Source: a candidate division FCPU426 bacterium
Lineage (GTDB): Bacteria; Oederibacteriota; Muellerivitia; Muellerivitales; Muellerivitaceae
Reading direction: 5' to 3'
DNA: 64,000 bases
Assembly (NCBI GenBank): GCA_963847625.1
Contig: CAWKAR010000057.1
Coordinates: forward strand, 40,722 to 104,721
Shown here: one piece after another, positions 18,284 to 62,603 of the stretch
How positions within the stretch are numbered: position 1 is the stretch's first letter
Layout: every line of letters begins with the position of its first letter
Position numbers and translations under genes: made by a program
Notes under the pieces: generated by a model
What the model saw: only the letters and a program-made list of their open reading frames with translations
Database searches by the model: none
What the model was told of the DNA's origin: nothing

Positions 18284-18600
18284 GCGCCGATCTACCTTAA
18301 AGAGATATTGAGATCGGTGCTATACCAGCCACTTTAAATTTTTTATGGAGGGCTGGCATGCGCTGGCAAGCATCGCCTTCGGCTTGTGCCGATTCATCTA
18401 AGCGTTATGCCCGGGGTAATTGTAGGAAATCGGTACTATACCGACCTCCTAACAGTTTTACGGTTGGTCGATATGTAGCCTCGGGCGGCCAGCCCATGCC
18501 GACGGAAAACCGCTATTCACCACATGCCAGCCTTCAATTAAGCATTAAATGGGGCTGGTATTGTATCGATCTCAATATTTCTTTATGGAAGATTGGCACA
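18284..18600. repeat. Family A hairpin doublets, three copies (18284-18360, 18386-18475, inverted 18523-18600)
   Basis: GYGCCGAT..ATCGGTRC-TAT-ACCRRCC..GGYYGRYAT architecture; homologous to the copies at 48.5-48.8, 60.7-61.3 and 62.2 kb. Confidence 0.85.
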
Positions 18601-18777
18601 GGGACTCAGAGACCCAAATAAAAGAATAACCCTGCAGCTTAGATTGAGGCCGGTAAGTTATATGGAAATGATTAAAATATAGGGGTTTCAGGCCCCCTTT
18701 AATTGCCGGGTCCCTTCCTATGGCGTAAAATCACCTAATGAAAATCATTAGATTTATAAATCCCAAAAAGAAGACTC

Positions 18778-18915
18778 AACTGGGGTTGTACGTTGGCCCT
18801 TGGGGCCAAGCACCCTTGTCCTGAATTTCAGGACAAGGGCTTCAAACCTGTCGCAATCCACTGGCTGGGCCTGCAAGTGGCCCAGCCCCGATTGGGGCAG
18901 CTTCTCGCAATGACA
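18778..18915 (+). repeat. Family B repeat, copy 2 (diverged)
   Basis: GTTGTACGTTGGCCCTTGGGGCCAAG, CCCTTGTCCTGAATTTCAGGACAAGGG, ending CTCGCAATGACA. Confidence 0.8.
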
Positions 18916-18944
18916 GATATTTATAAAAATTAAAAAAGGTTTCC

Positions 18945-21632
18945 ATGATCAATAAACGACCCGATCCCGACGCGCTTTTAAGCAAGCTCCAAGCCGAGGA
19001 AAAGGCCCAGAAGCGCGGCAAGTTGAAGATTTTTTTCGGCGCCTCGCCCGGCGTGGGCAAAACCTACGCCATGCTGGAAGCCGCCCGCGCCAAGAAAGCC
19101 GAGGGCCTGGATGTGGTGGTGGGCCCCCTGGAGACCCACGGCCGCGTTGAGACCGCCAGGCTCCTCGAGGGTTTGGAAATTTTGCCGCCGCAGGAATTGG
19201 AGTACCGCGGGACGAAGATGAGGGAGTTCGACATCGATGCGGCGTTGAAACGGAAGCCCGGACTCCTCTTGGTGGACGAGCTGGCCCACACCAACGCCCC
19301 GGGGTCCCGCCACCTGAAGCGCTGGCAGGACGTCGAGGAGCTCCTGGACCTGGGTGTGAGCGTCTTCAGCACCCTGAACGTCCAGCACCTGGAAAGCCTC
19401 AACGACATCGTGGCCCGGATCACGGGCGTGGTGGTGCGGGAAACCCTCCCCGACAAGGTCTTGGAGGAGGCGGACGAGGTGGAGTTGGTGGACCTGCCCC
19501 CCGATGATCTCCTGAAGCGCCTGCGGGAAGGCAAGGTTTACATGCCCGAAGCGGCCCAGCGTGCCGTCGAGAATTTCTTCAAGAAGGGCAACCTGACGGC
19601 GTTGCGGGAGATGGCCCTGCGCACCACGGCCGACCGGGTGAACGACCAGGTCCAGGATTACCGCAAAACCATGGCCATCACCCAGTCCTGGGCCACGGTC
19701 GACCGGATTCTTGTCTGCGTCTCCCCCAGCCCCTCCTCCGCCGACCTGGTGAGGACCGCACACCGAATGGCCAAATCCCTGAGGGCCGGCTGGATCGCCC
19801 TTTACGTGGAATCCCCCGTCCCTCCCGGCCCGGAGGAAAGGGAGCGGGCCGTCCGGCACCTCCGGCTGGCCGAGCAGTTGGGCGCGGAAACCGCCACCCT
19901 CACCGGCGAGCATTTCGCGGAGGAGGTCATGGATTACGCCCGGGAGCGGAACGTCACCAAGATCTTCATCGGCAAGCCCTCGAAATACTCCTGGCGGGCC
20001 CTTCTGCGCCCCTCCCTGGTGGACCAGCTCCTGAGATCCAGCGGGGACATCGACGTTTATGTCACCAAGGGCGAAACGCAGGACTTCCGGGAAAAGAACT
20101 TCCCGTCCGGGCCCGGGGTGGCCAAGCACAGGCTCAACTGGATGGGATACGCCTATTCCCTGCTGTGCGTCGCGGTCAGCACGGCCTTGGCTAACTGGAT
20201 GTTCCCCCACGTGGCCCTGGCCAATCTCATCATGGTTTACCTGTTGGGAATCCTGGCGGTCTCCTCGCGCCAGGGGATCGGCCCTTCCACTTTGGCGACG
20301 TTCCTGAGCGTCATCGCCTTCGATTATTTTTTCGTGACCCCCCGTTTCTCGTTCGCCGTCTCCGACACCCAGTATCTTTTCATGTTTTCGGTCATGCTCC
20401 TGGTGGGCCTTTCCATCAGCAATCTGACCGTCCGGCTGCGGGCGCAGGCCCGGCTTTCACGCCTGAGGGAGCGCCGGACCGCCGCCCTCTATTCCCTGAG
20501 CAGGGAGCTGGCGAGCACTTGGGGCACGGCGGAGCTTTTGGAAATCGCCGTGCGGCACATCTCCGAAGTTTTCGAAAGCTCCGTCATCGCCTTCCTCCCG
20601 GACAAGGACGGGCGCCTGCAAGTCCAGTGCGGGGCGGTAGCGGAATTCAACCTCACCGCCAAGGAACTGGGGGTGGCCCATTGGGTCTTCGACCTGGGCC
20701 AGGTGGCCGGCCGCGGCACCGACACCCTTCCCGCCACCGAGGCGCTGTACCTGCCCTTGCTGGCCTCGGGGGAACCCGTGGGATCCCTCGGCGTGAAGCC
20801 GCGGAACCCGGAAAAGCTTTTCATCCCGGAACAGCTGCACCTGCTGGAGGCCTTCGCCCACCAGACCGCCCTGGCGGTGGCGGCCGACAAGCTCCTCCAG
20901 AAGCAGCAGCAGACCCAGATGCAGGTGGAAACCGAGAAGCTGAGGAGCTCCCTTTTAAGCTCGGTGTCCCACGACCTGCGGACCCCCTTGACCGCCATCA
21001 CGGGCTCCGCCAGCAGCCTCCTGCAGGACGGGGAGTCCCTTCCTCCCTCGGCGAAACGCGACCTCTTGGAGAACATCCACGACGAGGCCGAACGGCTCGA
21101 AAGGCTGGTGGGAAACCTCCTGGAAATGACAAAAATCGAATCCGGCGCCATCCGGCCCAACAAGGAACTCAACCATATCGAGGAGGTCGTCGGGAACGCT
21201 ATCGCCCGCCTGGACAGGAAAACCCAGGGAAGGGTCATTAAAACCCGCATCCCGCCCGATCTTCCGCTGGTCCCCATGGACAGCCTCTTGATTGAGCAGG
21301 TGCTGGTCAACCTGTTGGACAACGCCTTGAAATACACGCCGGGGAACGAACCTATCGGCATCTCGGCCGAATTGGAAAAGGGCCGGTTGAAGGTGGAGGT
21401 GGCCGACCAGGGGCCTGGATTGCCGGAGGGGGACCTGGGACGGATTTTCGAGAAGTTTTACCGGGGCCCCCAGAACGGGAAAACCACCGGAGCGGGCCTA
21501 GGGCTTTCCATCTGCAAGGGTTTCGTTGAAATCCACGGGGGAATCATCACGGCAGAAAACCGCCCCGGCGGCGGCTCCCTTTTCCGGTTTACCCTTCCAA
21601 TTCCGCCATCAGCCTTGAAGGGACGGGAATAA
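18945..21632 (+). CDS. kdpD: Osmosensitive K+ sensor histidine kinase
   Basis: GASPGVGKTYAML, LVDELAHTN, USP domain, 4 TM, GAF, SVSHDLRTPL. Confidence 0.96.
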   Translation: MINKRPDPDALLSKLQAEEKAQKRGKLKIFFGASPGVGKTYAMLEAARAKKAEGLDVVVGPLETHGRVETARLLEGLEILPPQELEYRGTKMREFDIDAALKRKPGLLLVDELAHTNAPGSRHLKRWQDVEELLDLGVSVFSTLNVQHLESLNDIVARITGVVVRETLPDKVLEEADEVELVDLPPDDLLKRLREGKVYMPEAAQRAVENFFKKGNLTALREMALRTTADRVNDQVQDYRKTMAITQSWATVDRILVCVSPSPSSADLVRTAHRMAKSLRAGWIALYVESPVPPGPEERERAVRHLRLAEQLGAETATLTGEHFAEEVMDYARERNVTKIFIGKPSKYSWRALLRPSLVDQLLRSSGDIDVYVTKGETQDFREKNFPSGPGVAKHRLNWMGYAYSLLCVAVSTALANWMFPHVALANLIMVYLLGILAVSSRQGIGPSTLATFLSVIAFDYFFVTPRFSFAVSDTQYLFMFSVMLLVGLSISNLTVRLRAQARLSRLRERRTAALYSLSRELASTWGTAELLEIAVRHISEVFESSVIAFLPDKDGRLQVQCGAVAEFNLTAKELGVAHWVFDLGQVAGRGTDTLPATEALYLPLLASGEPVGSLGVKPRNPEKLFIPEQLHLLEAFAHQTALAVAADKLLQKQQQTQMQVETEKLRSSLLSSVSHDLRTPLTAITGSASSLLQDGESLPPSAKRDLLENIHDEAERLERLVGNLLEMTKIESGAIRPNKELNHIEEVVGNAIARLDRKTQGRVIKTRIPPDLPLVPMDSLLIEQVLVNLLDNALKYTPGNEPIGISAELEKGRLKVEVADQGPGLPEGDLGRIFEKFYRGPQNGKTTGAGLGLSICKGFVEIHGGIITAENRPGGGSLFRFTLPIPPSALKGRE

Positions 21633-21636
21633 TCCT

Positions 21637-22332
21637 ATGGATAACGGCGTTATTTTAATTATCGAGGATGAGCTCCCCATCCGGCGGTTCCTCAAGCCCT
21701 CCCTGCAAAGCCACGGCTTCAAGGTGGTGGAAACCGGCACCGGGGAGGAAGGACTGGCCCTGGCGTCTTCCCACAACCCGGACATCGTGCTGTTGGACCT
21801 GGGGCTTCCCGACATGGACGGGCTGGAGGTGGTCAGGCGGCTCCGGGAATGGTCCGCCGTTCCCATCGTCATCATCACGGCCCGGGGGAAGGAAAAGGAC
21901 AAGATCGCGGGCCTGGACGCGGGCGCTGATGATTACCTGACCAAACCCTTCGACGTGGGGGAGTTGTTGGCGCGCATCCGGGTGGCCCTGCGCCATTCCC
22001 TGCTCCTGAAGAGCGGGGGGAAACAGGACCCGGTCTTCGAGACCCCCGACTTCAAGGTGGATCTTGCCTCCCGGGTAGTGACGGTGCGGGGGAAAGAGAC
22101 CCACCTGACCCCAAACGAGTACGACCTTTTTGCTTACCTCATCCGAAACGCGGGCAAAGTGGTGACCCAGAAACAGATCCTCAAGGAAGTGTGGGGACCC
22201 GCCAGCGGGGACCAGGTCCAGTACCTGCGCATCTACGTGTACCAGTTGAGGCACAAGATCGAGGCCGATCCCGACAGGCCCCGTTATATCGTGACCGAGT
22301 CGGGGGTGGGTTACCGGTTAAAAACGGATTGA
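21637..22332 (+). CDS. kdpE: KdpE response regulator
   Basis: LLDLGLPDMDG, QYLRIYVYQLRHKIEADPDRPRYIVTESGVGY. Confidence 0.94.
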   Translation: MDNGVILIIEDELPIRRFLKPSLQSHGFKVVETGTGEEGLALASSHNPDIVLLDLGLPDMDGLEVVRRLREWSAVPIVIITARGKEKDKIAGLDAGADDYLTKPFDVGELLARIRVALRHSLLLKSGGKQDPVFETPDFKVDLASRVVTVRGKETHLTPNEYDLFAYLIRNAGKVVTQKQILKEVWGPASGDQVQYLRIYVYQLRHKIEADPDRPRYIVTESGVGYRLKTD

Positions 22333-22347
22333 TTCGGGCAGTCCCGC

Positions 22348-23367
22348 TTATTTCCATCCCGCCCAAAGGAAGATCCCCTCGAAAAGCGCCGCGATTAGGG
22401 CGGCCGCCGGGATCGTCAGGATCCAGGCCCACACGATTTTGCCCGCCACCCCCCATTTGACCGAAGAGATCGAGGTGACGCTCCCCACTCCGATGATGGA
22501 CCCTGTGATGGTATGGGTGGTGGAGACCGGGATTCCCAGGTACGTCGCAAAAAAGATCGAGATAGCCCCGCCCGTTTCGGCGCAAGCGCCCCCCACGGGC
22601 CTCAACTTGGTGATTTTTTGACCCATGGTCTTGACAATGCGCCATCCGCCCGACATGGTCCCCAAACCCATGGCCGCGTAACAACAAATAATGATCCACC
22701 AGGCGATTCCCTGGCCGTCCCCCCTGTGCGCCAACTGGGTCTGGTTTGACGCCACCAACAGGGCCATGATAATCCCCATTGTCTTCTGCGAATCATTGGC
22801 GCCATGGCTCACGCAGTAGGCGGCGGACGAGAAATACTGGACCACGCGGAATATGCTGTCCACCGAGGAAGGCGTGACCTTGTGGAACAGGTTAAAAACG
22901 GCGGTCATGAGGAAGGCACCCAAAAAGATGCCGAGGAAGGGTGCTATAAAAATAAAGATGATAGTTTTTTGAAAACCCGCCAGGATAAGGACCTTCCAGC
23001 CTGCGTAGACGACCGCCGCGCCCCCGAATCCCCCGATCAAGGCGTGGGAGGAACTGGTGGGCAGGCCGTAGTACCAGGTGATAAGGTCCCACAGGATGGC
23101 CCCGAGAAGCGCCGCCAGGATGACGAATACCGTGATGCCGGAGGGTTCCACCAATCCTTTCCCCACGGTATTCGCCACGTGGGTGCCCACCGTGAAAGCG
23201 GCCACGAAGTTGAAGAAAGCAGCCCATACGACCGCTTGTCCCGGGCTTAAAACCCTGGTCGAAACAACGGTGGCGATGGCATTGGCCGCGTCGTGGAAGC
23301 CGTTCAGGAAGTCGAACGCCAGGGCGACCAGGATGACCAGGGCGATGACCGTCATTTCCGGATTCAA
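22348..23367 (-). CDS. pit: Inorganic phosphate transporter, PiT family
   Basis: NGFHDAANAIAT, HGANDSQK, PVSTTH. Confidence 0.94.
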   Translation of the reverse strand: MNPEMTVIALVILVALAFDFLNGFHDAANAIATVVSTRVLSPGQAVVWAAFFNFVAAFTVGTHVANTVGKGLVEPSGITVFVILAALLGAILWDLITWYYGLPTSSSHALIGGFGGAAVVYAGWKVLILAGFQKTIIFIFIAPFLGIFLGAFLMTAVFNLFHKVTPSSVDSIFRVVQYFSSAAYCVSHGANDSQKTMGIIMALLVASNQTQLAHRGDGQGIAWWIIICCYAAMGLGTMSGGWRIVKTMGQKITKLRPVGGACAETGGAISIFFATYLGIPVSTTHTITGSIIGVGSVTSISSVKWGVAGKIVWAWILTIPAAALIAALFEGIFLWAGWK

Positions 23368-23437
23368 AGGACCACTCCCATAAAGTATTTACGTAAGGCG
23401 TATGGTTTTATGCCTTTACGCTTGCCGGCGACCGGAT

Positions 23438-24064
23438 TTAAGCGTTTTCCAGCACCACTCCCTCGATGATGTTCGCCACGTCCTCACAGCGGTCAATGGC
23501 CGTTTCTATGTTCTCGAAAATTTCCTTCCATATAAGTACCTTGACCGCATCCTTCTCCTCTTTGAACAGCTTGGCGATGGCCGCGTCCCGCACGGCGTCG
23601 CCATCGTTTTCCAGCTTGTTGATCTCGATGCAGGAGGCCAGGATCTCCTTGGCGTTCTTGAGATTCTTCATACTGGCCACGGCTTTTTGGACCTCCAAGA
23701 CCGAGCGGTAAAGGATTTTGGCGAGTTCGATTAGTTCGGGGGGTATTTCCGTGACGCCGTAAAGCATCATGCGGCGGGCGGCGCCGTCGGTGAAGTCGAT
23801 GACGTCATCCATCAGGGAGATGAGCTGGTGGATCTGGTCCCGGTCGATGGGGGTGATGAAGGTTTTATGGAGCATTTCCATGGTGTGGTGGGTGAGTTCG
23901 TCGGCGAGGTGCTCGGCTTCCTTCAGCCGGCGGACCTTGGCCGGCGCCTCCTGGTAGTGTTCCAGCATGTCCACGAGGATCTGGGAACCTTCCACCAAGG
24001 CCGCCGCGTGCTGGTCGAATACCTCGAAAAAACCGTATTCCTTGGGTATCAGAAAGTTGAACAT
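23438..24064 (-). CDS. DUF47 / PhoU-like Pit accessory protein
   Basis: EHLADE, FITPIDRDQI, LENDGD, DRCEDVA; directly upstream of pit. Confidence 0.9.
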   Translation of the reverse strand: MFNFLIPKEYGFFEVFDQHAAALVEGSQILVDMLEHYQEAPAKVRRLKEAEHLADELTHHTMEMLHKTFITPIDRDQIHQLISLMDDVIDFTDGAARRMMLYGVTEIPPELIELAKILYRSVLEVQKAVASMKNLKNAKEILASCIEINKLENDGDAVRDAAIAKLFKEEKDAVKVLIWKEIFENIETAIDRCEDVANIIEGVVLENA

Positions 24065-24388
24065 GTTCCCTCCGGTTGGGCGGAATGATTCCTTAAAATG
24101 CCGGAAGAAGATTGCCACACCCGGGTGAAGAGGTCAACCCGGAAAATAAACTTGTGGTAAAACAAGGTGGTTGCCCCCGATTTTCCATATTTAAAACATT
24201 AAAAAGAATTCGCCTTTAAGGGAAATGAAAGTCAAGAACCCTTTTTTCAAGTCTCGAAACCTAAAAAAGCCATTCCTAAACTCATATGAAATATTTTTTT
24301 TGTGTGACGGGGGTCATAATCAAAATTAACTTCGGCCATAAAATATGGTTGCCCCGAGTTTAATCCCATTTTTTTAAGAGAGGTTCCC

Positions 24389-26344
24389 GTGAATCTCATA
24401 AGTTTCTTGATTTTGTTCCCGCTTATTCCAGCCCTAATATTGTTTGTGACAACCAGCCAAACCCTGCGCGCCTGGGTGGTGCGCCTAAGCGTATTGGCGA
24501 TCATCGTAGCTTCCGTGGCTTTGGTTTACCAATACATGGGGCCTGCCACTACCTTCTTCAAGGTTGACCAACCCTGGACCGATAAGGCACTACTGGCGGG
24601 GGACTTACTCCTCACCTTATATTTACTCTATTGTTGCAAGGATATCCTCCTAAAAGAATCCTGGATCCCGGTTCTTCTGGTATTGCAGGCCGCCGTGACG
24701 GCCTACACCGAGTTCGGTTTCCCCGCCCAACCAGTGATGAACGAGCTTTACGTCGATAATTTTTCCCTGATCATGGCGTTAATCATCGGCGTGATAGGCG
24801 GTCTTATTTGCGTTTACGCCATCTCTTATATGAAGGATTTCCACGAACACCATCCCCAGGTCCAGGACAAGCGCCGTGGTTTTTTCTTCCTTCTTTTCCT
24901 TTTTCTTTCGGCCATGTTCGGGGTGGTTTTTTCCAACCATCTCGGTTGGCTGTTCCTGTTCTGGGAAATCACCACCCTTTGCTCCTTCCTCATGATCCGC
25001 TATACCGAAGAGGAGGAGGCGAAGCGCAACGCCTTCCAAGCCTTGGGCATGAACCTGATCGGCGGCCTGGGTTTCGCCCTGGCCTTGTTTTTCCTGGCGG
25101 CATAATCAGCTGTTCCCCGGCCTTGGACCTGCTCATCACCCTGGGTAAGACCGGCGCCTTGATAGCCGTTCTCCCCGCGGTCCTGATATGCTTCGCGGGC
25201 CTGACCAAATCCGCCCAATTGCCCTTCAGCTCCTGGCTCCTGGGAGCCATGGTGGCCCCCACCCCCGTGTCCGCCCTGCTCCATTCCAGCACCATGGTGA
25301 AGGCCGGGGTCTTCATCATCGTCAAGTTCGCGCCCGTCATGGAGAAAAACCCGAGCGTGGGCTTTTTCCTCGGGCTGGTGGGCGGAGTCACCTTCCTGAT
25401 CGCCTCGCTCGCGGCCGTGACCCAAAGCAACGCCAAGCGCGTCCTGGCTTATTCCACCATCGCCAATTTGGGGCTGGTGGTGGCTTGCGCCGGAGTCGGG
25501 ACACCCCAGGCCATCTGGGCCGCGATCCTGCTGATCATCTTCCACGCCATCGCCAAGGGCCTTTTATTCCAGGCCGTGGGTTCGGTGGAGCACAAGATCG
25601 GGAGCCGGGATATCGAGGACATGGACGGCCTGATCGTCACCCGCCCCGGCCTTGCCTTCGTCCTCCTGGTAGGCATCCTGGGAATGTTCCTGGCGCCCTT
25701 TGGAATGCTCATCAGCAAGTGGGCCTGCCTGGAAGCCTTCATCCAAAGCAATCCCCTATTGGCGATCCTCCTGGCCTTCGGTAGCGGCCCCACCCTCTTT
25801 TTCTGGGCCAAATGGATGGGCAAACTCATCAGCATGCCTACCACCGAGCGGGCCAAGGGGCTGTCAGCGGTGACGAATGGGCTTCCCTGGGTACCTTGTC
25901 GGTCTTGACCATCGCCGCCTGCGCGCTCTTTCCCATTGTTTCCCACGACATGATCATGCCTTATCTCCAGGCCCCTGCCGGCGTCATGGAACCCCTGACC
26001 CACGGAAATATGTCCATCATGCTCATTATGCTGGGCTCGTTCCTCGTCCTTCCCCCGCTTTACCGTTTCATTCCACGGAAGGAAATCCAGGTGTCCTCCT
26101 ACCTGGCCGGCGCCAACTTCCAAAACGGCAACTCTCAATTCAAGGGAGCCATTGGCCGGTCCATGGGCGTTGAAATGCGTAATTACTACTTGAGTTCCAT
26201 CCTGAACGAGAACACCCTGGCCCTGGTGGGCAGGGCTTGTTGCGCGGGCCTGATCCTGGTCATGGTTTGGATGGGCGTCTCCTATCGGGGAGGGGTTGAA
26301 CTTCCCCTCACCTTGAGCCAGGCTCCGGCCCAGTCCCTGGACCC
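24389..26344 (+). CDS. echA: Ech hydrogenase antiporter-like subunit A (indels near 25100 and 25860; no stop before echB)
   Basis: FWEITTLCSFLMI, TKSAQLPFSSWLLGAMVAPTPVSALLHSSTMVKAG, VLAYSTIANLG across ORFs 24389, 24808 and 25812. Confidence 0.85.
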
Positions 26345-27210
26345 GATGCTGAGACTGGCGCTGTTCGCCGCCTTCATCTTGGGCGCCCCCGTATTGGGCT
26401 GCCTTCTGGCCGGGATTTGACCGGATCGTAACCGCCCGTATGCAGGGGCGGGTCGGACCGCCGATCCTTCAACCCTTTTACGACGTGATGAAACTCCTGG
26501 AAAAGCAAACGGTCGTGGTCAACCACGCCCAGGCTTATTACGTTTTTTGCTTCCTTTTATTCATGGTTTTGACAGGCGCGCTTTTCTTCATGGGCGGAGA
26601 TCTGCTGTTGGTGGTGTTCGCCCTGACGGTAGCCTCCATTTTCCTCGTCCTGGCCGGTTATTCCCCCAACTCGCCCTATAGCACCATCGGCGCGGAGCGG
26701 GAACTCCTGCAAATGATGGCCTATGAGCCCATGCTTCTCTTGATGGTTTTGGGCATGTACCAGTCCGCCCATAGTTTCCACGTGCAGTCCATTCTAACGG
26801 CCCCACATCCCCTCTTGTACGCCCTCCCCGGCGCTTTTCTGGGCTTCATCTTCATCCTGACCATTAAACTGCGAAAGTCGCCTTTCGACCTATCCACCTC
26901 TCACCACGGGCACCAGGAACTGGTGAAGGGCCTGACCACCGAGTTCTCGGGCACCCAACTGGCCATGATCGAGGTGGGTCACTGGTACGAGAACATTCTT
27001 TTGCTGGGCCTGGTTTATTTATTTTTCGCCGCTTTCTCCCTCTGGATCGCCCTGGCCGCAACATTGGCGGTTTACCTCTTCGAAATCCTGATTGACAATT
27101 CCTACGCCCGTCTGACCTGGCAGTTTACCTTGAGGTCGGCTTGGGGCGTGGCCGCGTTGCTGGGTGCCGGTAACATATTGTTTCTTTTTTACAACTTGTT
27201 AGCGAGGTGA
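26345..27210 (+). CDS. echB: Ech hydrogenase subunit B (NuoH-like); indel near 26416
   Basis: APVLGCLLAGI|DRIVTARMQGRVGPPILQPFYD, KSPFDLSTSHHGHQELVKG. Confidence 0.88.
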
Positions 27211-27214
27211 CGTC

Positions 27215-28044: not shown

Positions 28045-28045
28045 C

Positions 28046-29125: not shown

Positions 29126-29126
29126 C

Positions 29127-48274: not shown

Positions 48275-48403
48275 CAGGCATTATTTAAACTGAGCTTGTA
48301 TGTTGGCCCTTGGGGCCAAGTATGGTTGGCCTGAATTTCAGGCCAACTACTTCAAGCATGTCATAAACATCCCGCTATTCGCGGGATATTCATCGCAATG
48401 GCA
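48275..48403 (+). repeat. Family B repeat, copy 3
   Basis: Near match to the reverse complement of 14499-14627. Confidence 0.85.
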
Positions 48404-48530: not shown

Positions 48531-48841
48531 CATGTCGAACCTCATTAAAGCTTTCAATGAAAGTTCGGTATAGTACCGATTTCCTTAACTTTTTTAGGGG
48601 TGAATCGGCACATCCCTTGCTCCGAGGCCTATTAGCCTGCCCTTCACCCACCAGGTGAAGGGCAAAGTTTGGTAATGCCAACTAAACGACAGTTGGTACA
48701 AATCGAGGAGCGAGCCTTGACGAATTCTGTCGCCCTTGGGCGCGATAGCGGCCAATGGGTGGGTGTGCCGATCTTCCATAATAAATATTGGAGATCGGTA
48801 CGATACCAGCCTCAATATCAGTTTTATAGAAGGCTGGCATG
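48531..48841. repeat. Family A doublets (inverted 48531-48611; forward 48765-48841)
   Basis: GTGCCGATCTTCCATAATAAATATTGGAGATCGGTAC-GA-TACCAGCC..GGCTGGCATG. Confidence 0.88.
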
Positions 48842-52392: not shown

Positions 52393-52419
52393 CGCGTCAG
52401 GCCAATTTTTTAAACTATT

Positions 52420-52875: not shown

Positions 52876-52943
52876 CTTCAGCCTCCTCTTAAGTTAAAGT
52901 TAAATCTGATCGATCAAATTTAACTTTATTCAACTCGAATCTT

Positions 52944-53279: not shown

Positions 53280-53310
53280 ACGAAAAAAGCTTATGGCTTT
53301 TTAAAGTGAT

Positions 53311-53838: not shown

Positions 53839-53871
53839 GGTTTCTCCCATGTTACTTTATTGAGTAACTTA

Positions 53872-54105
53872 ATGGTGGATCCTTACGGTAATGTTTTTGT
53901 CGCGGACACCCTCAATAACACGATCCGGGAAATCACCGCGAGCGGGGTTGTGACGACTTTGGCCGGTTCGGCTGGAGTGACCGGCTCCGCCAACGGCCCC
54001 CTCTCCTCCGCGACCTTTAACAATCCCTTCGGAATCGCGGTGGATTCATCCGGGACCCTTTACATCGCTGATACCAATAACAATCTCATCCGGAAAATCC
54101 AGTAA
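53872..54105 (+). pseudogene. C-terminal remnant of an NHL-repeat protein
   Basis: VDPYGNVFVADTLNNTIREIT...PFGIAVDSSGTLYIADTNNNLIRKI begins mid-repeat, right beside the TA promoter. Confidence 0.7.
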
Positions 54106-54115
54106 AGAGAAAGTC

Positions 54116-55678
54116 TTAGTGGAGGGTTTCGCAATGGAGTCCCCCCGCGCCCCAGGGATACATGGGGACCGGAATGACCTGGTAACCGCATTTTTCGATT
54201 AGGGACTTTTGCTCATCGAAGACCGGATTATCCGAGCCGGAAGCCGCCCGCAGGACATTCCAAACATTAGAATAGGAGTTGATCACTCCCGAGAAATTCT
54301 GATCGGTCGGGTACTTGATCCAACTCGCGCACCAATTATTCAGGTCTCCCAAAGCGTTATAGATTCCGCGTTGGACGGAGGGCGCCCCATTCCTGGGAAT
54401 GTTGTCGGGATATTTCGACAGCATCACGATTTCGCGTTTCTGGGCGGGGTCGTAATACTTGAGCAGGTTCGCGGGACTTCGGACAGGATGGTCCGCGAAG
54501 GGCAGGCGGATCACGTCGTAACCCAAGGATGACATTTCCAAAGCCGTGAGGTTGAATTCCTTTTGGAGGCGATTTCGAAAGGCTGAATCCAAGGGCTGGC
54601 CGGTGGTCGCGTCGATGGGATTCTCCAGGTAGGTTGGGATGAAAGCCCGTGGTTTGGGATTGTCGGCGATGACCGCGGCTAGCATGTCGAGATGGAATAG
54701 CTGGGGATCACCTTGGGAGGGATCCTCAAGCGCCGACTGGGGAAGGAAAACCACGGGTAACCCGAAAAAATCAGATTGATAAGCTTGTTTGGCGTCCAGG
54801 ATCTGGCCGATTGAAGCCTTTTGGGAAACCGGGAAGTCGCCTTGGAGCCTTTGGAGGTATCGGACGGCGGCAAAACGCCCAGCGAGAATGGCCGGCTGAT
54901 TTCCGGGCCCCCATACCAATTCCAAGTCGCCGCCCTCGGTACTGACAGTAGGTCCAGTTTCCCGAACGGTAAAGTCATTAGGATATGCCTTGACCAACGA
55001 AGCCACCGTTCCACTGTACCAGCCTGGCTCACCCTTTCCGGTCATGATGACAATCCGGTCCAGTGGGTCCCTGCCCATGACCTCCCCGATATCCTGGCTC
55101 CAAATCATCGGGTAGGGAGTCTCGTAAAAGCGCATCCTTTTCCGGAAATCCCCGCTTTTCCAACCCCAGCGGATTTGGAGGAACTCCTTGAACCAATCCT
55201 TTTCCCTCGCGGCGGGATACCCCACGTATATGAGAGTGTCCTTTGGGAGGATATTCCAGATCTGTCCGTAGGATATTTCCAGGTCGATCCAATACATCAT
55301 CTTCTGGAGGTAAAGGACCTTCTTGGGATCCAAGCCCGGGCCGTTAACCACCTTCGTGAGGCCGAAATAATCGTTGCTTGCCACTGAGAGGCCCATGACC
55401 AAACGGTCCAGGGGACGGTCCGATTCCGGGATAAGGGTGAACCCGGCTTTCTCCAGGTACAGGCTTCTCGGGTAAAGACTTGGGTTGAATTGACGGGTAG
55501 GATGGAAATAGAAATACAAAGCCAGGCCCAAAACGGCCGCGACTATTCCCGCTAGGAATCGGATGGAGGTATTTCGCTTTCGAGACGGGGAAATTTCCGC
55601 TGGCCGCCGGGGTGGTTTGGGTTCAGGGATTTCCGCCTCGTGGGCAGGCTGGTCATTGGTCATGGTAGGGGATGACAT
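54116..55678 (-). CDS. Membrane-anchored pentein-superfamily (amidinotransferase/deiminase-like) enzyme
   Basis: One N-terminal TM; WSQD, TEGGD, FHLDM and C-terminal GGLHC motifs. Confidence 0.65.
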   Translation of the reverse strand: MSSPTMTNDQPAHEAEIPEPKPPRRPAEISPSRKRNTSIRFLAGIVAAVLGLALYFYFHPTRQFNPSLYPRSLYLEKAGFTLIPESDRPLDRLVMGLSVASNDYFGLTKVVNGPGLDPKKVLYLQKMMYWIDLEISYGQIWNILPKDTLIYVGYPAAREKDWFKEFLQIRWGWKSGDFRKRMRFYETPYPMIWSQDIGEVMGRDPLDRIVIMTGKGEPGWYSGTVASLVKAYPNDFTVRETGPTVSTEGGDLELVWGPGNQPAILAGRFAAVRYLQRLQGDFPVSQKASIGQILDAKQAYQSDFFGLPVVFLPQSALEDPSQGDPQLFHLDMLAAVIADNPKPRAFIPTYLENPIDATTGQPLDSAFRNRLQKEFNLTALEMSSLGYDVIRLPFADHPVRSPANLLKYYDPAQKREIVMLSKYPDNIPRNGAPSVQRGIYNALGDLNNWCASWIKYPTDQNFSGVINSYSNVWNVLRAASGSDNPVFDEQKSLIEKCGYQVIPVPMYPWGAGGLHCETLH

Positions 55679-56334
55679 TAGTATTTTTCCCCTTCCGAGT
55701 TTTTAATTCCGGAGGGATTTTGAATGGCTTTTTGAGAAGCGGGAACCTGCCCAGCTTTCATGGCTTGGGCGTACAAGGCCTCCAACCGAGCCTCGTCGTC
55801 CTTCCATTGCCGCGTGATTTCGTCGCATTTTTTCCGGTCAGCGGGGTCCTTCGAGAGGGATTCCCAATTCTGCCCATGCTTCTCAAGGAGCTGATCGATC
55901 TTGGCCTGGTACAGCCGTGATTTTTCCTCATATTTTTTCACAGCTGCCATCCACTTTGGATCGTGGTTGAGTTTGGAGGAAGCCGTTAACTTGGCCTGAT
56001 TATCGGTTTGCCCTGTTTTTCCCGTTTTCGGCCAGGAGGTCGCGTAACTGGAAGGGGAGGGCTGGAGGCTTGGGGGGGCCTCTACCGGGGGAGGACCTGA
56101 AGGCGGACAGAGAGAGTCCGGATTGGCCCCGGGAGGAAAAGGCGCGGCTGGCTGGGTCTCATTGTTAGGGAGAAATGAGTTCTGGACAGGATTACCCGGG
56201 TTTCCAGAAGAGTGGTTGTTCGTCCCCTGTGGCTGCTGTTGGGGAGGTTCTCCAGCCCTGGAAACATTGGCTATGAAAAAAGCCAGGATAATCATCCCCA
56301 AACGAATATTTGACCCGTCGTTTCTTTTCCCCAT
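55678..56334 (-). CDS. Secreted hypothetical protein (Pro-rich region plus coiled coil)
   Basis: Signal peptide; stop overlaps the next gene's start. Confidence 0.7.
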   Translation of the reverse strand: MGKRNDGSNIRLGMIILAFFIANVSRAGEPPQQQPQGTNNHSSGNPGNPVQNSFLPNNETQPAAPFPPGANPDSLCPPSGPPPVEAPPSLQPSPSSYATSWPKTGKTGQTDNQAKLTASSKLNHDPKWMAAVKKYEEKSRLYQAKIDQLLEKHGQNWESLSKDPADRKKCDEITRQWKDDEARLEALYAQAMKAGQVPASQKAIQNPSGIKNSEGEKY

Positions 56335-56400
56335 AGTCTTTTCTCCTTCCGAAAAACGCTATCCCAAGGATTTTAACCGATGACCCTTGTGGAAGCCCCG

Positions 56401-57879
56401 CTATAAAAACAACTGGAGCCCCGTGTAAATCCTGTTTGAGCAAGGGGCGCTTGATTCAGCATTGGATGATTCCATCTCGAAATTATCGCCGGCGATCACA
56501 AAGATTTTATCCAACAAAGGATGCCTGAACTCGGCATAGATCAGGCTGACCAAATCCGATCTCATGGGGACGGTCCTTTCCATCAATGGGTAATGGGGAT
56601 AACTCAATGTTTGGATGCCGACCCCTAGATCCAGGTTCCATTGGGACCAACCGCTTTTCTGAAAGGTCAGGAGAAAACCATCGGAGACATAATCGTATTT
56701 AGCCACGAGGGCCGAGTTCCAACGGCGGGAGTAGGTGAATTGGAGAGTGAGATCCCTCCCCAGGGTTCGGTTTCCTTGAAAAGTGGCCACCCAGCTCCAT
56801 GAGTCCATGTCGGTGTTTTGGCGGTCGCTTTCAAGAAGGCATTGGGCCTGCGCTTGCAGCTTGAATTCGGCAATTTGATAGAGGATGGCGGTCGTGACCT
56901 GGTGGTGTTGGTATACTTCCTGTCCTTTCAGCGTTTCCTGCTGCCAATCATAACCGGAATACAGAGAGAAATTCCGTCCCAAAGGCGGATCGCAGGAGGC
57001 GCCAAGGGTTTTCATGTCGTCCCAACCATCGGTTCCTCCGCCATTCCGGCGTGACAAGCCGGTGGAGGCATACAAGCACCCTTTGAAATCATTGTCCCGT
57101 GAGGCTAAGCCTAGTTGGGTGTTTATCTCGCCGCTGGAATCGTAAGGCGCGGCCAATAAACTTGTAGGACCACCCCAGATTTGGGTATTACCGGTCATGG
57201 TTTTGACGCTTCCAAATAAAACAGGGTTGTCGATAAGGGAGGGGGAAGGCAATGAACGGCCCCGCGTTTCCTGGGAGAAGGGATCGTAGGTTAAATTTCC
57301 CCCAACTCCGCGGTTTAAGTAAGCTTCAGCCGAATCAGGGCTCAGGTTATTCTCTATGAGGCGCAGGAAATCCCGGGCCTCGCCGTAATGGTCGCATAAA
57401 AGAAGGCATTGCCTTATTTCGGCCTTCGATTTTTCCACTTGGTTCAACCTATAACGGGTCAAAGCCAGGTCATAATGGACTTCGGCTGAGGAAGGATTTT
57501 CCAATGCGGCCTGGCTGAATTCCAGCAACGAGAAACTATATTGTCCTGACATGTACCATTGAAGACCCTGGGAAAGGTGTGATTGAAAGATCTGATCCGA
57601 GGGCCGGTCTCCCAACTTCTCCAGCATTGAGAGGGCTCCTGTTTGGTTTGGATCCAGGCGGACAGCGTTCCTGAAACATTCCAGCGCGTCGTTCATGATG
57701 TCATGCGAATAGAATGCCAGGCCGCGCTGATATTCAGATTCCGCGTCGGCTGGATGAGGGGCTGTGATTCCGGAATCGGCAGGGGGGAGAACCGCTGTTG
57801 GATCGGTAAAATCCGGATATGCGGGTGAACCGAAAATAAGGAGGAATGAAATGATAACCGAGTATGAAAGGGCTTTCAT
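56401..57879 (-). CDS. TPR protein with probable C-terminal beta-barrel
   Basis: True start MKALSYSVIISFLL at 57879 (the upstream ORF extension lies inside the IS); TPR motifs; ends RIYTGLQLFL. Confidence 0.75.
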   Translation of the reverse strand: MKALSYSVIISFLLIFGSPAYPDFTDPTAVLPPADSGITAPHPADAESEYQRGLAFYSHDIMNDALECFRNAVRLDPNQTGALSMLEKLGDRPSDQIFQSHLSQGLQWYMSGQYSFSLLEFSQAALENPSSAEVHYDLALTRYRLNQVEKSKAEIRQCLLLCDHYGEARDFLRLIENNLSPDSAEAYLNRGVGGNLTYDPFSQETRGRSLPSPSLIDNPVLFGSVKTMTGNTQIWGGPTSLLAAPYDSSGEINTQLGLASRDNDFKGCLYASTGLSRRNGGGTDGWDDMKTLGASCDPPLGRNFSLYSGYDWQQETLKGQEVYQHHQVTTAILYQIAEFKLQAQAQCLLESDRQNTDMDSWSWVATFQGNRTLGRDLTLQFTYSRRWNSALVAKYDYVSDGFLLTFQKSGWSQWNLDLGVGIQTLSYPHYPLMERTVPMRSDLVSLIYAEFRHPLLDKIFVIAGDNFEMESSNAESSAPCSNRIYTGLQLFL

Positions 57880-59583
57880 CCGGAATTTCCCAGATGACCT
57901 TCTCTGAAAACATTGCCGGGTAATTTGTTTCTCATTATATTCCCCCCCCCCGCTTCTTCCACCCGTATCCGGAATTTTCTGGCCCAAGGCCAGCGAAATG
58001 AGCCCAAAAAAGGGTTTCTGTGCCCCAAAAAAGTTGAAAATGACCTTCCAGAAAGCCAATTCTCGTTGTGAACGCACACCTATCCCACGATGGTTGATCC
58101 GGTTGAAGCCATGAAGTGTTCCTGCGGTTATCGCAGTACTGGCGCTCGCGGCCTTACCATCGCCAGTAGCCTTATCCGTCCAAGGATTTCAGCAAACAGG
58201 CGTTGGGTAACCATCACCTCCGCCATCTGGAAAACCACGTACCGCGAATGGCGGATAACGTTAGCTCCGATTTTGATAAGTTTTTCTCGCAACGTCGTCA
58301 GCGACCAATGCTTCACCAGTTCTGGCAGGGCTAGACGGCGAAGGAAGTTGCCCAAGTTGTAAGCCAGTGCAAATAGTTGCAACCTTACTTGGTTGTCCGC
58401 GAAGTCGTGGCAGCTTAGTCTTGTCCACTTCATCGCGTACTTTCCCTCCTTGATCCATTGCTCAGCCGTACCTCTTCCGTTGTAGAACTTCACCACCTGG
58501 GGTGCCGGTCGTCGCATGTTCGTCACGATGAAACCCACCCTCGGGAAAAGTTCGCCGTTGTGATGCTCAATCTTCGCCACCACGCGGCGGGGTTTGTCCC
58601 AGCTGACGGCTTGGTATTGGAAGCTGTGATACCGGACAACCGGCTTGTGGGAAGGGCGGCCCACGGGACGGGTCAAAAATGGCTCAATTTCTCTTTGTAG
58701 CACGCCATTGGCGGGTTGGCGGATCGCATAAAGGTATCCTTCGTCTTCTAGGTACTCGTATAGTTCCTGACGGGCGAAGGCCGCGTCACCCCGGAAAAAA
58801 CGGCTGATGGAAAGACCCCGATAACGGACAACCACTGGTTCAAGAACCGACCGCCACTCGTGGGCGCTGGCCACATTGCCGTTGCGCAACATTGCCCGTT
58901 CCAAATCGCCAAACTGGTTGAAACAAAACAGGGGATGGTAACAGGTACAGCCGAAGTAACCGTTGTACAAGGAACCTTCTTGGTCCCCGTAGGTTTCACT
59001 CACGGAGCTGTCCATGTCGAGAATAATCTGCTGGATGGGCTTTTTTTCATGGACACCATCAATCCATTGGCCAGATAGGTCAATCAGACCGGTCTGGTTC
59101 TTCGACTGGGTGAGAACTTCCGTCTCGAAACGTCCCATCTGGCTGGTGGAGGCAGCTTGTTTTTCCTTGGCCCGTCCTCCGATCACATGCCGCATCGCCG
59201 GATCAACACTCAATCGTTCTGCGTCGTTGGTGTCCTCGTAACCGGCTAGGCGGCTGTAGATTGATTGCCGCAAAAGCGCCGTCATCGTATGTTGCGTATT
59301 CTTGCCGGTTCGCCGATCCCTCAGAAGGTTTTCCGTTCTGTCAGTCAAACCAAAGGCTTCATCGAGTTCACGATAGGGAATCAACCCGCCATCGGAAGTG
59401 ACCTTCGCGCCATGGAACTCCAGCTTGAGACCAGGATCAAAAACCACCCGAAGAGCGTCTTTTCCCCTTTCACCCATTGCATTCCCCCCTCTCGTGGTCC
59501 CCAAAGTGAAGAAAAACCTTTGTTTGTATGGCCAAACGACGCCTTATTATACTCGAAAGGTAATTTCATCTGGGAAATCCGGG
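57880..59583 (-). mobile_element. IS1380-family insertion sequence
   Basis: Terminal inverted repeats CCGGAATTTCCCAGATGA (57880) and CCCGGATTTCCCAGATGA (reverse complement ending 59583), 16/18 identical. Confidence 0.88.
58128..59477 (-). CDS. tnp: IS1380-family DDE transposase
   Basis: VTSDGGL, GYEDTND, ILDMDSS, RGDAAF, YNGRGTAEQWIKEGK. Confidence 0.95.
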   Translation of the reverse strand: MGERGKDALRVVFDPGLKLEFHGAKVTSDGGLIPYRELDEAFGLTDRTENLLRDRRTGKNTQHTMTALLRQSIYSRLAGYEDTNDAERLSVDPAMRHVIGGRAKEKQAASTSQMGRFETEVLTQSKNQTGLIDLSGQWIDGVHEKKPIQQIILDMDSSVSETYGDQEGSLYNGYFGCTCYHPLFCFNQFGDLERAMLRNGNVASAHEWRSVLEPVVVRYRGLSISRFFRGDAAFARQELYEYLEDEGYLYAIRQPANGVLQREIEPFLTRPVGRPSHKPVVRYHSFQYQAVSWDKPRRVVAKIEHHNGELFPRVGFIVTNMRRPAPQVVKFYNGRGTAEQWIKEGKYAMKWTRLSCHDFADNQVRLQLFALAYNLGNFLRRLALPELVKHWSLTTLREKLIKIGANVIRHSRYVVFQMAEVMVTQRLFAEILGRIRLLAMVRPRAPVLR

Positions 59584-59764
59584 ATAAGACTCTTTAACCT
59601 GACGCACAAAACCTACCTTTTAATTTTACCGCTAAATCGCCTTTTTGCGAGTAGTTAACCGCTAAACCTATTTGTGTTTGACAAAATATTTAAGACGCCA
59701 AATGCCCCGATTAATGGATTTTTTTTGAAATTTATTGGATTTCCCGGTTAAGAATTTTTAATGG

Positions 59765-60490
59765 CTATTTGACCACGGTCACAAGGTCCTCGGCCCCCAA
59801 GTAATAAATACCGTGCCCGCCCGTGATCGAGGTGGTGTAGTTGATGCACGCGCCGATCACCGTGTAGGTTCCCGGGGAGGGGAAAGCCGGTGCCGGGACC
59901 GAGGCGGGCGATTTGGCGCTCCAGCATACGCTGGACTCGTAGGTCAGGTTACTGGAGCTGTCCATGACCGCGAAGACGGAGAATACCGGGTTGCCGGGCC
60001 AGGTGACGGTGGATCCGTCCGTGGCAATGGAGGGGGTGGGGGGCATCACCAGGGAAGCGGAAGCCGTGCCGCTGGTTGTCACCGAGGTGAGCGTGTAAGC
60101 GGCGCCTGTGGTGAAGAGGATGTTATTCGCCGTGATGTAATCGGAGTAGTTAGTCCCGTTCATGCTGATGTAGCCGTTCCCGTAGGGCAGCTCCAGGTTC
60201 ATCCCCGGCCCGGTCAAGGTGACCCCGGCGGTGGTGTAAGTGCCGCAATCCACCGTCAGGAGAAGCTCCGCGTAACCCGTGGTGATCCCGTTCGAGACGG
60301 TGGAAATGAGCTGTGCGAATCCCCACATGATGCCGTTGGTACAGGGCGGGGTCTGGGGGGGCGCGTAGCAGGTCGGCGTGGGCGTGGGCCCGGGCGGGGG
60401 CGACACGGAATAGTTTTTCTGGCAGGCCAGGGGGATGGCGGTTAAAAAACAAGCGGTGAGGATAAGGAACAAACCTATATGCTTGGGCAT
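59765..60490 (-). CDS. Hypothetical lipoprotein
   Basis: LTAIPLA-C lipobox, PTPT linker; TATAAT 6 nt before the ATG. Confidence 0.75.
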   Translation of the reverse strand: MPKHIGLFLILTACFLTAIPLACQKNYSVSPPPGPTPTPTCYAPPQTPPCTNGIMWGFAQLISTVSNGITTGYAELLLTVDCGTYTTAGVTLTGPGMNLELPYGNGYISMNGTNYSDYITANNILFTTGAAYTLTSVTTSGTASASLVMPPTPSIATDGSTVTWPGNPVFSVFAVMDSSSNLTYESSVCWSAKSPASVPAPAFPSPGTYTVIGACINYTTSITGGHGIYYLGAEDLVTVVK

Positions 60491-60687
60491 GGGTCAATTA
60501 TACCCAATAGCGGCTGTTTGTAATTCCCTATTTTTCATTTGCCTGGCATGCGAACTACTTTTCTTTTTTCGGTCCCATTCAATCAGCGCAGAGCGCTCGT
60601 AGGGGAAATACCCCCTACGTTACCCCGGCTTAAAACGTATGGCATATTTGCAATAGGGATTTGTTAACAAATGAGAGGACGCTGGCT

Positions 60688-60841
60688 CGTGCCGATCATC
60701 CATAAATATTATTGGAGATCGGTACTGTACCAGCCTCAAAATAAGTCATATGGATGGCTGGCACGTGCCGATCATCCATAAATATTATTGGAGATCGGTA
60801 CTGTACCAGCCTCAAAATAAGTCATATGGATGGCTGGCACG
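60688..60841 (+). repeat. Family A doublet duplicated as a perfect 2 x 76-bp tandem
   Basis: CGTGCCGATCATCCATAAATATTATTGGAGATCGGTACTGTACCAGCCTCAAAATAAGTCATATGGATGGCTGGCA starts at 60688 and at 60764. Confidence 0.92.
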
Positions 60842-61222
60842 CTCCACCCATCCCCCGTCCGAAAACAAAATTCTGAATTTTAAATGTTTAATTCTAAATT
60901 TTGGACCGATTTCCGTATTTCGGAAATCCTCATTCATTCATAATTCATAACTTAGAATTCAAAATTGCCTTTAAAGGGTTCCCTTACGCTTATTGTTAAC
61001 GGGATTTGGGAAGGCCGGTTGTTTAGGCTCTCATGAAGGCACTGCCACACGCTGTGGTGCGTGGGGCCGGGGTTTTAATAAACGCCGTAAAAAAGAAAAC
61101 TATGGTTTGGCCACGGTTTCAGGGGATGCACTCGGATAGCCAAAACATTCATGAAAAACATGAATGAATTTTAAATTTTTAATTATGAATTTTTAATTTT
61201 AAGTAAGCCCATGAATCTCATG

Positions 61223-61300
61223 CATGCCCGCCTTCCATAAATCTAATAAGGTGGCTGGTATCGCACCGATTTCATTAACTGTTTTATTGTGAATCGGCAC
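61223..61300 (-). repeat. Family A doublet, inverted
   Basis: Reverse complement GTGCCGATTCACAATAAAACAGTTAATGAAATCGGTGCGATACCAGCC..GGCGGGCATG. Confidence 0.85.
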
Positions 61301-61399
61301 ATCCGTGGCTAATTTTTTGCGGTTTTTTTTGTTTTTGCAGTTAATTCCTAACTACTGGCTGTCTTTTTAATTGTTTATTCTCCATTTTCCATTGTTCTA

Positions 61400-62008
61400 T
61401 CAGGCTGTGTACTTCAGGATGCCTCGGGAGTCGAAAAGATCCTTCCGGATCAAGAGGAGCTTTTCCACCAGTTCCTGGTCCTGGTCCAGGCTCGCCAGCA
61501 CCTTCCCGATGATCTGGAAGGTCTCCTTCCGGAGGGTTTCTTCCTGGCGCAGGATCATGGGCAGGCTCCGGATGTCAGGCCCGGTCGGCAGATTCAGGGC
61601 CAGCGGGGCGCCCGCCCTCGCGGACAGGATTTCCCACAGGATGCGGAAATGGCGCCGGGCCAGGCCCAAGAGGTGCCAGACCGCGTCGGCGGGTATGTCC
61701 TCCGGGGAGCCGGGCTCGGCGGCGCCGGAAAGAAGCACCAGGCGCCGGTGGGTGGCTTCCAGCGCCTGGAAAAGAAGGGCGGTGCGTTTCAGCGTGATTT
61801 TATTGTAATCACCCTTGTTGAGCAGTTTTTCCAGCGTCTGGGCCTCCTGCCCGCACCGGTTGAAAAGTTCATGGGTGGCCTGGGCGCTCCGGGGGCTGAT
61901 GCGGAAAGCCCGCCCGGCCAGGTGTTGGAAGCCCCGGTTCAATTGCTCCAAGGCGGCTGTTATTTGGTATAGGGATATATAAAATTCCATGGTTCGGCTC
62001 CTTTTCAT
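61400..62008 (-). CDS. Hypothetical all-helical protein
   Basis: GC-rich coding-like ORF in AT-rich flanks; no family recognised. Confidence 0.65.
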   Translation of the reverse strand: MKRSRTMEFYISLYQITAALEQLNRGFQHLAGRAFRISPRSAQATHELFNRCGQEAQTLEKLLNKGDYNKITLKRTALLFQALEATHRRLVLLSGAAEPGSPEDIPADAVWHLLGLARRHFRILWEILSARAGAPLALNLPTGPDIRSLPMILRQEETLRKETFQIIGKVLASLDQDQELVEKLLLIRKDLFDSRGILKYTA

Positions 62009-62220
62009 ATAGACGCCCGAATAGGCAAAAAAGTGACGGAATCCACGGAACACCCAAGTTTGAATGGCTTTTTTGTGATAGGCTTTGCCGCCCTAACTGC
62101 TTTTTTTCGCCCCCTTCCCCTTCTCATGTATGGAGAATGGGTCGCTTGCCTTTGCCTGTTTTTTATAAAACCCCCGGACGAAAAAAAGAAAACCACAATT
62201 TAGCCACGGATTCAGGGGGT

Positions 62221-62603
62221 GTGCCGATTCACCCCTAAAGCAGTTAAGGAAATCGGTACTATACAGGCCATCCGAGGCTGCCAGCCGAGGGTGAAGATTG
62301 CCGGTGCAGAACAATATAAAAATCTGCACCGAACTTTCATTAAACGCTTTAATGAGGTTCGGCATGCACTCGGATAGGCCGAAGAAAAAAGCTTCAAATA
62401 GTTGTTCTTTTAAAACCCCCGGCCCCACGCACCGCATGCCGGGCCGGGCCTTTTAATGGATGGCCCGGCGCATAAAAAGCGCATCCCGGCTTGAAGCCTC
62501 GAAGCATAGGCCTTCCATAAAGATAATATTGGGGCGCCTGTACCGAGCCTGCCAGGAGAGGCGCATATTTGGTTGTGCCGATTCCTTAATTGGAATCGGC
62601 ACA
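62221..62603. repeat. Family A doublet split by an insert (62221-62366), plus single units (62509-62538, 62574-62603)
   Basis: Both hairpins nearly match the reverse complement of 48531-48611. Confidence 0.82.

Follow-up and report, generated by a model that had tools for sequence, protein, structure and literature searches.

The window, by which we mean the whole stretch of 64,000 nucleotides that was analysed, lies in a genome of 4.43 Mb that is 94% complete (G000; other G numbers denote the genomes compared with it) and contains several copies of an element of 73–80 bp with the layout XY-[half A]-Y'NX'-[half B]-XY, in which two hairpin-forming halves are separated by a triplet and the same dinucleotide stands at both ends. 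An earlier note on this DNA had reported nine hairpin doublets here, and all nine loci are present, with offsets of 1–2 bases at most. Seven of them are tight doublets with a 3-nt centre. Of the other two, one has an extended first loop and a decayed end, and the other is broken up by a 63-nt repeat. A scan of the window against Rfam gave no match at the gathering score.

The leftmost copy is complete (18285..18358, plus strand; half A, CTA, half B), is flanked by TG on both sides and has eight spanning matches to empty alleles, i.e., sequences in which the two flanks are joined with a single copy of the dinucleotide. It sits within the end of a second family of two-hairpin repeats, into which the doublet also inserts (window position 18283). 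The next copy, decayed and with an extended first loop (18387..18473, plus strand, TG/TG flanks), folds weakly (z −0.55) and has seven empty-allele matches, the query being offset by one base. Three further complete elements, for each of which an empty allele was sought and none found, lie at 18525..18598 on the minus strand (CA/CA on the plus strand, which equals TG/TG on the minus strand), at 48533..48610 on the minus strand (TG/TG on that strand) and at 48766..48839 on the plus strand (centre CGA, TG/TG flanks). At 60690..60839 on the plus strand follows a tandem pair of identical CG-type elements with the centre CTG (60690–60763 and 60766–60839) that share one CG at 60764–60765, have CG/CG on the outside and yield four empty-allele matches with a single CG. 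A complete element on the minus strand (61225..61299, 25 empty-allele matches) occupies the right arm of a host repeat (61108..61311, ends approximate, no strand assigned) that, judged by its sequence, consists of the inverted arms of a GxxExxY cassette without the gene; the same arms also surround a GxxExxY nuclease gene on contig C49 of the genome. Another host repeat, which starts at window position 62201, carries in its left arm an element that is interrupted near its own centre (62222..62364, plus strand, 20 empty-allele matches). The interruption is a 63-nt copy of the second two-hairpin repeat (62264..62326, plus strand) located after the TA that opens half B, and its flanks are TA/CA here. 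Finally, a 26-nt palindromic remnant with two half-A-type ends (62576..62601, plus strand) is, from its sequence, probably the product of an internal deletion. Taken together, five of the eight window loci have empty-allele matches. The window also contains yet another two-hairpin intergenic repeat in two copies that are 81% alike (18778–18852 and 48288–48362), near two of the element clusters, and a copy of an IS1380-type DDE transposase (Pfam DDE_Tnp_1_4, 57880–59585) that is present 11 times in the genome.

Genome-wide, a two-block profile retrieved 267 hairpin units, 264 after removal of overlaps, and none from the reversed genome sequence at an equal score threshold. The units group into 114 loci and form 100 tail-to-tail doublets with a spacing of exactly 3 nt as well as nine head-to-head pairs with a spacing of 2 nt. 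None of 96 doublet blocks falls within a called gene in a genome with an intergenic share of 19%.

In each half of the doublet, a stem of eight compensating base pairs, one of them a conserved G-T pair, is followed by a small bulge, a further conserved C-G pair above it and a free loop that is AT-rich. Within the stem, positions 3–4 are nearly invariant C-G pairs, positions 5–8 switch pairwise, and position 2 holds the G-T pair (153 of 174 A halves, 162 of 175 B halves). The C-G pair over the bulge persists in 154 of 174 A and 148 of 175 B halves. The loop varies in both sequence and length, and longer loops are tolerated, with an extra hairpin inside the loop in copies at several sites; TAA-N5-TTA, previously proposed as a loop core, is present in only about one half in five (32 of 174 for half A, 39 of 175 for half B). 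The two halves had been described as the same unit read in one orientation. This does not apply: half A has an xAT stem (A6 in 99%, T7 in 98%) and half B a GAC/AGC-type stem, and the doublet is a polar heterodimer. As its halves are of different stem type, the element has a direction.

The compensatory switching of stem bases that had been noticed in the window was borne out on a larger set of 55 doublets from many genomes, in which both partners vary in eight of 18 pairs (93 cells). None of 500 shuffles reached the observed value, and slid controls gave 0–2 pairs; this shuffle control ignores relatedness and is therefore not a p-value, since kinship inflates covariation, and template switching within hairpins could yield part of it without selection. 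Covariation lies within each half, and end-to-end identity at stem positions 5–8 is only 0.13–0.64. Three intact doublets (five strands) gave fold z-scores of −4.0 to −4.8, with two separate hairpins in four of the five strands. Of the proposed selection for folding as single-stranded DNA or RNA, the folding part stands, but an RNA role as the main function does not: the G-T pair is on opposite strands in the two halves (top in half A, bottom in half B), no single transcript can therefore use both, and this argues for DNA rather than for one RNA. A diverged subfamily in genome G004 (L188, L190, L191, L193, L194 and L200) has CCCC/GGGA-type stems with the same two-hairpin layout and a 3-nt centre.

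The doublet is a mobile non-coding DNA element. It is flanked by a direct repeat of 2 nt, which the earlier note had missed, in 91 of 100 cases and by repeats of 3–6 nt in none. When the flanks were joined with a single copy of the dinucleotide, a spanning match elsewhere in the genome was found for 69 of 100 doublets, ungapped for 66. Comparison of occupied and empty loci between genomes revealed one orthologous site at which G001 is exactly 77 bp longer than G000; among 10 orthologous intervals, at least one showed a clean doublet-only difference and at least one a shared insertion, the remaining intervals among those listed being unalignable or differing by whole host repeats. Filled and empty sites show that the mobile unit is the whole doublet and not the 35–38 nt hairpin that had originally been taken as the unit. 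Tandem arrays with 2-nt junctions, in which neighbours share one XY, reach eight doublets in G001. The suggestion that the units are substrates of an enzyme encoded elsewhere is supported, because filled and empty sites are precise and the element has no coding capacity, which together point to an enzyme acting in trans. The second two-hairpin repeat enters doublets behind the TA that opens half B; several copies have TA on either side (G000:C3:148986, C63:93015 and C21:25120), and the repeat may use the same machinery.

Insertion has a fixed direction and occurs at a pyrimidine-purine dinucleotide, mostly TG. Copies were oriented by stem type alone, and 16 of 113 doublets that were ambiguous by this measure were left out. 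Among 94 distinct copies of the own genome, 70 read TG-CnA-TG, five CG-CnG-CG and four TA-TnA-TA (these four represent one site type), 15 contain one or more mismatches, and none has CA flanks. With the relatives added (n = 273), the numbers are 233, seven and four, with 29 others and again no CA flanks, although the metagenome loci among them had been selected with the right end fixed by the search pattern and hence are not a free test of polarity. The central triplet can pair with the flanking dinucleotide if one base is looped out: in 264 units, flank position −1 can pair with centre position +1 in 250 and −2 with +3 in 238, as compared with −2 and +2 in only 24. Many copies were probably amplified inside host repeats and counts therefore overstate independent events. 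When distinct target sites were compared, CG/CG flanks accompanied a CnG centre in six of seven site types and any other centre in one of 96, with the qualification that the CnG elements may be one subfamily. At one position in a host repeat, the empty alleles read CG in 40 cases and TG in two, yet the copies that fill it are mostly TG-CnA-TG; this fits target choice by the element, with overwriting of the target or co-amplification as alternatives.

The hairpin arms of GxxExxY cassettes are preferred landing sites, and co-amplification with the host repeat explains part of this preference. In the relatives, 75 of 167 distinct copies interrupt 9-mers of GxxExxY arms, as compared with 73 of 1500 control TG sites (4.9%), and in the own genome 22 of 90 copies lie within such 9-mers as compared with 1410 of 87923 controls (1.6%); a wider arm-motif test in G000 gave 41 of 100 copies. 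Inverted arms are present at 24 of the 25 GxxExxY nuclease loci that were read, and the arm type occupied by the element differs by genus. Gene-less arm copies are themselves an abundant repeat and occur in G001 where they are absent at the orthologous G000 site (L150, L358–L386). Apart from the dinucleotide, G000 shows little target preference. The predicted folds of targets are only slightly more stable than those of control TG sites (median −9.4 versus −7.0 kcal/mol for 50 site types), the TG is paired in the predicted fold of 29 of 50 targets versus 63% of controls, and no GC-skew bias was found. The element is also hosted by palindromes from other families, by a tRNA 3' end and by copies of itself. 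At apparent tRNA 3' ends (G000:C3:95447; L199, L214, L215), the first bases of the element restore CACCA, and three such copies adjoin integrase genes. A polysaccharide locus (G000:C3:1-60000) contains 12 element loci in 50 kb together with genes that, read by eye, resemble small toxin-antitoxin genes and AAA ATPases.

Of 30 genomes from the same family, 28 are matched by a covariance model, with a weak match in one of these. Among genomes that are at least 80% complete, the element occurs in 24 of 27 within the family versus none of 65 outside, and the scan of relatives that the earlier note had called for shows an element confined to one family of uncultured bacteria. There is no clear match in G008, G012 and G017 (85–97% complete), G012 giving one weak match and G017 no doublet match. 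A pattern search of a genome collection returned 67 matches, of which seven loci in six records are true, and one of these six records is titled Candidatus Firestonebacteria. Five loose matches in viral contigs do not score as members of the element family, and a tighter pattern gave none. This distribution suggests long vertical persistence within the family. The literature searched held no description of the element, though catalogues of repetitive extragenic palindromes (REPs) in the supplements of papers could hold it, and the family is a real and apparently undescribed one of miniature mobile DNA of the hairpin-doublet type. Measured against the same literature, the polarity, the match between centre and flank, and the pile-up in GxxExxY arms are new.

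A search for the mobilising enzyme was conducted from several sides. Clustering of the genes beside the 114 own loci revealed no recurring recombinase or transposase, nor did the neighbourhoods in low-copy relatives, in dense regions of G000 and G001, or at 80 metagenome loci. Two reverse transcriptase genes, one of them broken, are present in the genome and neither adjoins any of the 114 loci. A RAYT partner flanked by units, as known for REPINs and considered in the earlier note, was looked for and not found. G000 has three Y1 genes, none with a unit within 2 kb, and their motifs, length and own ends of the GGGGTCAG type assign them to subclass 2.1/TIRYT, genes of which are likewise present in element-free genomes; when the genome was scanned with a custom Y1 profile and for HUH motifs, only these three TIRYT genes came up, and no IS200-type TnpA was found in G000. 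At 31 Y1 loci there was no strong unit, no units lie beside the IS200-type TnpA genes of relatives, and extra Y1 loci of G001 have units within 600 bp in three of ten cases. In L001 and, on both sides, in L003, IS110 lies directly against the GGGGTCAG-type end of TIRYT genes, which suggests that IS110 targets these ends.

In the 30 relatives, Y1 enzymes are found in 21 genomes, IS30 in seven, serine recombinases in 11, IS110 in five, GxxExxY nucleases in 26 and tyrosine recombinases in all 30, as compared with 28 for the element. None of the enzyme families tested matches the distribution of the element, and none flanks the units. A GIY-YIG query matched all 30 relatives and did not discriminate. 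A recurring neighbour of about 600 amino acids was dropped as a candidate partner, since it showed only a weak PDZ match and a hydrophobic stretch; this protein is encoded in several copies (G000:C3:26082-27833, C45:1537-3384, C34:105409-107340 and paralogues), likely has a helix-turn-helix N-terminus and matches no Pfam family above the cut-off. Among the ends of IS30, IS3, IS1380, IS481-like and IS110 elements, only the IS30 tips are modestly similar to the element. The GxxExxY protein is predicted to adopt a plain restriction-type nuclease fold without sign of strand transfer (pLDDT 94; best structural match at Z 7.6 with an rmsd of 2.4 over 89 aligned residues, none at Z ≥ 8). Apparently, each family genome has one chromosomal Xer-like tyrosine recombinase gene (region G000:C60:100843; L237–L256), with a palindromic dif-like site of two arms and 6 bp between them directly upstream of the start codon. 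In this genome, no RAYT of the REPtron type acts as the partner, whose identification could therefore reveal a new strand-transfer activity.

Compared with known systems, the element behaves like a REPIN or an IS200/IS605 derivative and fails the defining tests of REP, REPIN, attC, dif and DDE MITE. With REPINs and BIMEs, it shares non-coding, extragenic, inverted-hairpin doublets with compensatory changes and tandem arrays, and a lineage-restricted, apparently vertical persistence; the same sources hold that in the REPIN/RAYT system the cleavage dinucleotide is thought to be chosen by pairing with a motif of the element (PMC3116915, PMC8266576, PMC6006769, 10.1101/2021.07.10.451892). Like in REPINs, the doublet is the mobile unit. 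Unlike REPINs and BIMEs, it has no unit-flanked RAYT gene and no GTAG/GTGG foot, in line with what had been remarked for the window copies (GTAG, GTGG or CGTC within 8 nt upstream in 14 of 264 units and on the other side in four of 264), it is a heterodimer with a 3-nt centre instead of a long spacer, and it shows a symmetric 2-nt direct repeat and strict polarity. A REPIN moreover consists of inverted copies of one REP that form one long hairpin, whereas here the halves differ and form two separate hairpins. IS200/IS605 elements and their derivatives likewise have imperfect hairpins with a mismatch and a bulge and find their target via an element-borne guide, and guide pairing is described there for both IS200/IS605 and TnpA-REP (PMC8266576); their guides are tetranucleotides 5' of each hairpin, whereas our element has one central triplet for both ends and halves that face opposite strands. 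CGTC-family REPs also form dimers, some within other palindromes, and no dedicated transposase was found for them, but they differ in foot, stem and loop sizes and carry a CGTC tag that the element lacks (PMC3733652). As in integron attC sites, structure is conserved over sequence and there are extrahelical bases (PMC4792948); unlike attC, AAC/GTT cores (RYYYAAC...GTTRRRY) occur in none of 187 elements, there are no cassettes, and the two sites are on opposite strands. A tyrosine-recombinase site resembling attC or dif, which the earlier note had mentioned, is not supported, there being neither an attC core nor a fixed spacer. The loops were also considered as dif/Xer sites and this was rejected, as they have no fixed 6–8 bp spacer and the element's boundaries lie at the outer dinucleotide; by eye, the dif-like arms of the lineage itself vary between genomes and remain palindromic, while CGGTA of the element is constant.

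In our preferred interpretation, towards which we lean on balance, the element travels in a fixed direction as a folded single-stranded circle by means of a trans-acting strand-transfer enzyme. On one strand, both hairpins would fold and bring the two XY steps together, and cutting and rejoining at XY would release a circle that closes as a dumbbell in which the junction XY is paired to Y' and X' of the centre with N looped out. In the reverse step, the target of insertion would have to carry the same XY, and this requirement would explain both the polarity and the occurrence of CnG elements at CG. Arrays could arise from insertion at the element's own junction, from rolling-circle copying or from slippage. 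Chemistry of the HUH (Y1) type would be the closest precedent, by analogy. Both junction pairs are present in the minimum-energy fold of only 76 of 187 circularised elements, and the others pair half A with half B. The arrangement of the halves on opposite strands would fit equally well with a two-fold symmetric complex whose cuts in the two strands are offset by two bases. Broken junction pairs are similarly frequent at the inner and outer position (19 versus 15 among 103 site types), and a crossover in the middle of XY, which was favoured at first, is not supported on distinct sites. A bolder version, tentative and rather doubtful as a whole, would have a self-splinting dumbbell of 75 nt in which the centre both closes the circle and programs the target, and which, without a transposase of its own or of any known class, rides GxxExxY arms and their nuclease across the family. 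If the model is true, the element ranks among the smallest mobile DNAs that carry their own rule for matching a target, in that two changed bases in the centre appear to change the target dinucleotide. Finding the partner could also show how repeats without a dedicated transposase spread, a question that the work on CGTC REPs leaves open (PMC3733652), and the strong nesting in GxxExxY arms offers a handle on that common nuclease family.

The element may instead be a hyperparasite of GxxExxY cassettes, with the GxxExxY PD-(D/E)XK nuclease nicking in or near the arms and repair copying the folded element in, primed by 2-base microhomology and without any transposase. The enrichment in arms (75/167 and 22/90 against 73/1500 and 1410/87923 in controls) and the presence of GxxExxY in 26 of 30 relatives, including all high-copy genomes, speak in favour, and microhomology priming would also demand the XY match. 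We nevertheless regard this reading as unlikely: GxxExxY is also present in G012, with a single weak doublet match, and in G017, with none, and was not found in the doublet-bearing genomes G018, G020 and G028 (80–89% complete), about half of the sites lie outside arms, doublets are near only two of 30 GxxExxY genes, the protein is predicted to be a generic restriction-type nuclease, and the arm enrichment may reflect co-amplification or safe havens. Alternatively, a double-stranded circle could recombine at a matching core by means of a serine recombinase (IS607-like) or an IS110 recombinase, with the hairpins being secondary. For IS607, the cited text proposes circle integration at a matching dinucleotide with little other specificity, and a circle with such a dinucleotide, of IS607 or IS110, would leave the same footprint (PMC4058570); the polarity, the 2-nt direct repeat and the asymmetric flanks would all follow from an IS607-like route, and the matching dinucleotide at both junctions (91/100) is a true likeness. 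What makes this quite improbable is that the covarying centre and the within-half stems would go unexplained, the element being selected for pairing within each half, and that there is no matching autonomous element. Serine recombinases and IS110 occur in 11 and five of 30 relatives versus 28 for the element, where insertion sequences are often missing from incomplete assemblies, the own-genome serine matches, of which four of five were read, have the catalytic domain at the N-terminus, unlike IS607, and the IS110 ends in the genome are unrelated to the element.

Two further readings have very little probability. IS30-type elements form junctions with short spacers, and the tips of the abundant IS30 copies in this genome show a likeness, noticed post hoc, to the 5' arms of the halves (0.3% of random 18-mers score as high), as would befit a MITE of an IS30-family DDE transposase. 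IS30 of this genome duplicates 3 bp, however (31 of 36 copies), its inner conserved box is absent from the halves, and it occurs in only seven of 30 relatives. A fill-in duplication by a DDE enzyme would be expected to place the element either way round at TG and to leave flank and centre unlinked, and the polarity thus largely refutes the MITE origin, which we hold to be very improbable. Equally hard to credit is a structured RNA or cis-regulatory element that was only passively duplicated, even though half B often ends in a purine-rich tract followed by ATG (ATG at the end in 161 of 187 elements, a GGAG/GAAGG-type word in 120), the element ends at the ATG before an ftsE-like gene in five genomes, and the transcribed strand is mildly disfavoured (40 versus 23). 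The G-T pairs on opposite strands and the precise empty sites speak against it, and the ATG opens a frame of at least 100 amino acids in only 17 of 221 copies. The ATG of half B at gene starts fits an occasional exaptation, not an origin. The genes that start with the tract and ATG of half B are real ones, among them ftsE-like, purL-like and others (L005, L020, L173, L175, L187, L177, L179, L196 and L211), and in these cases the end of the element has probably been exapted as a translation start.
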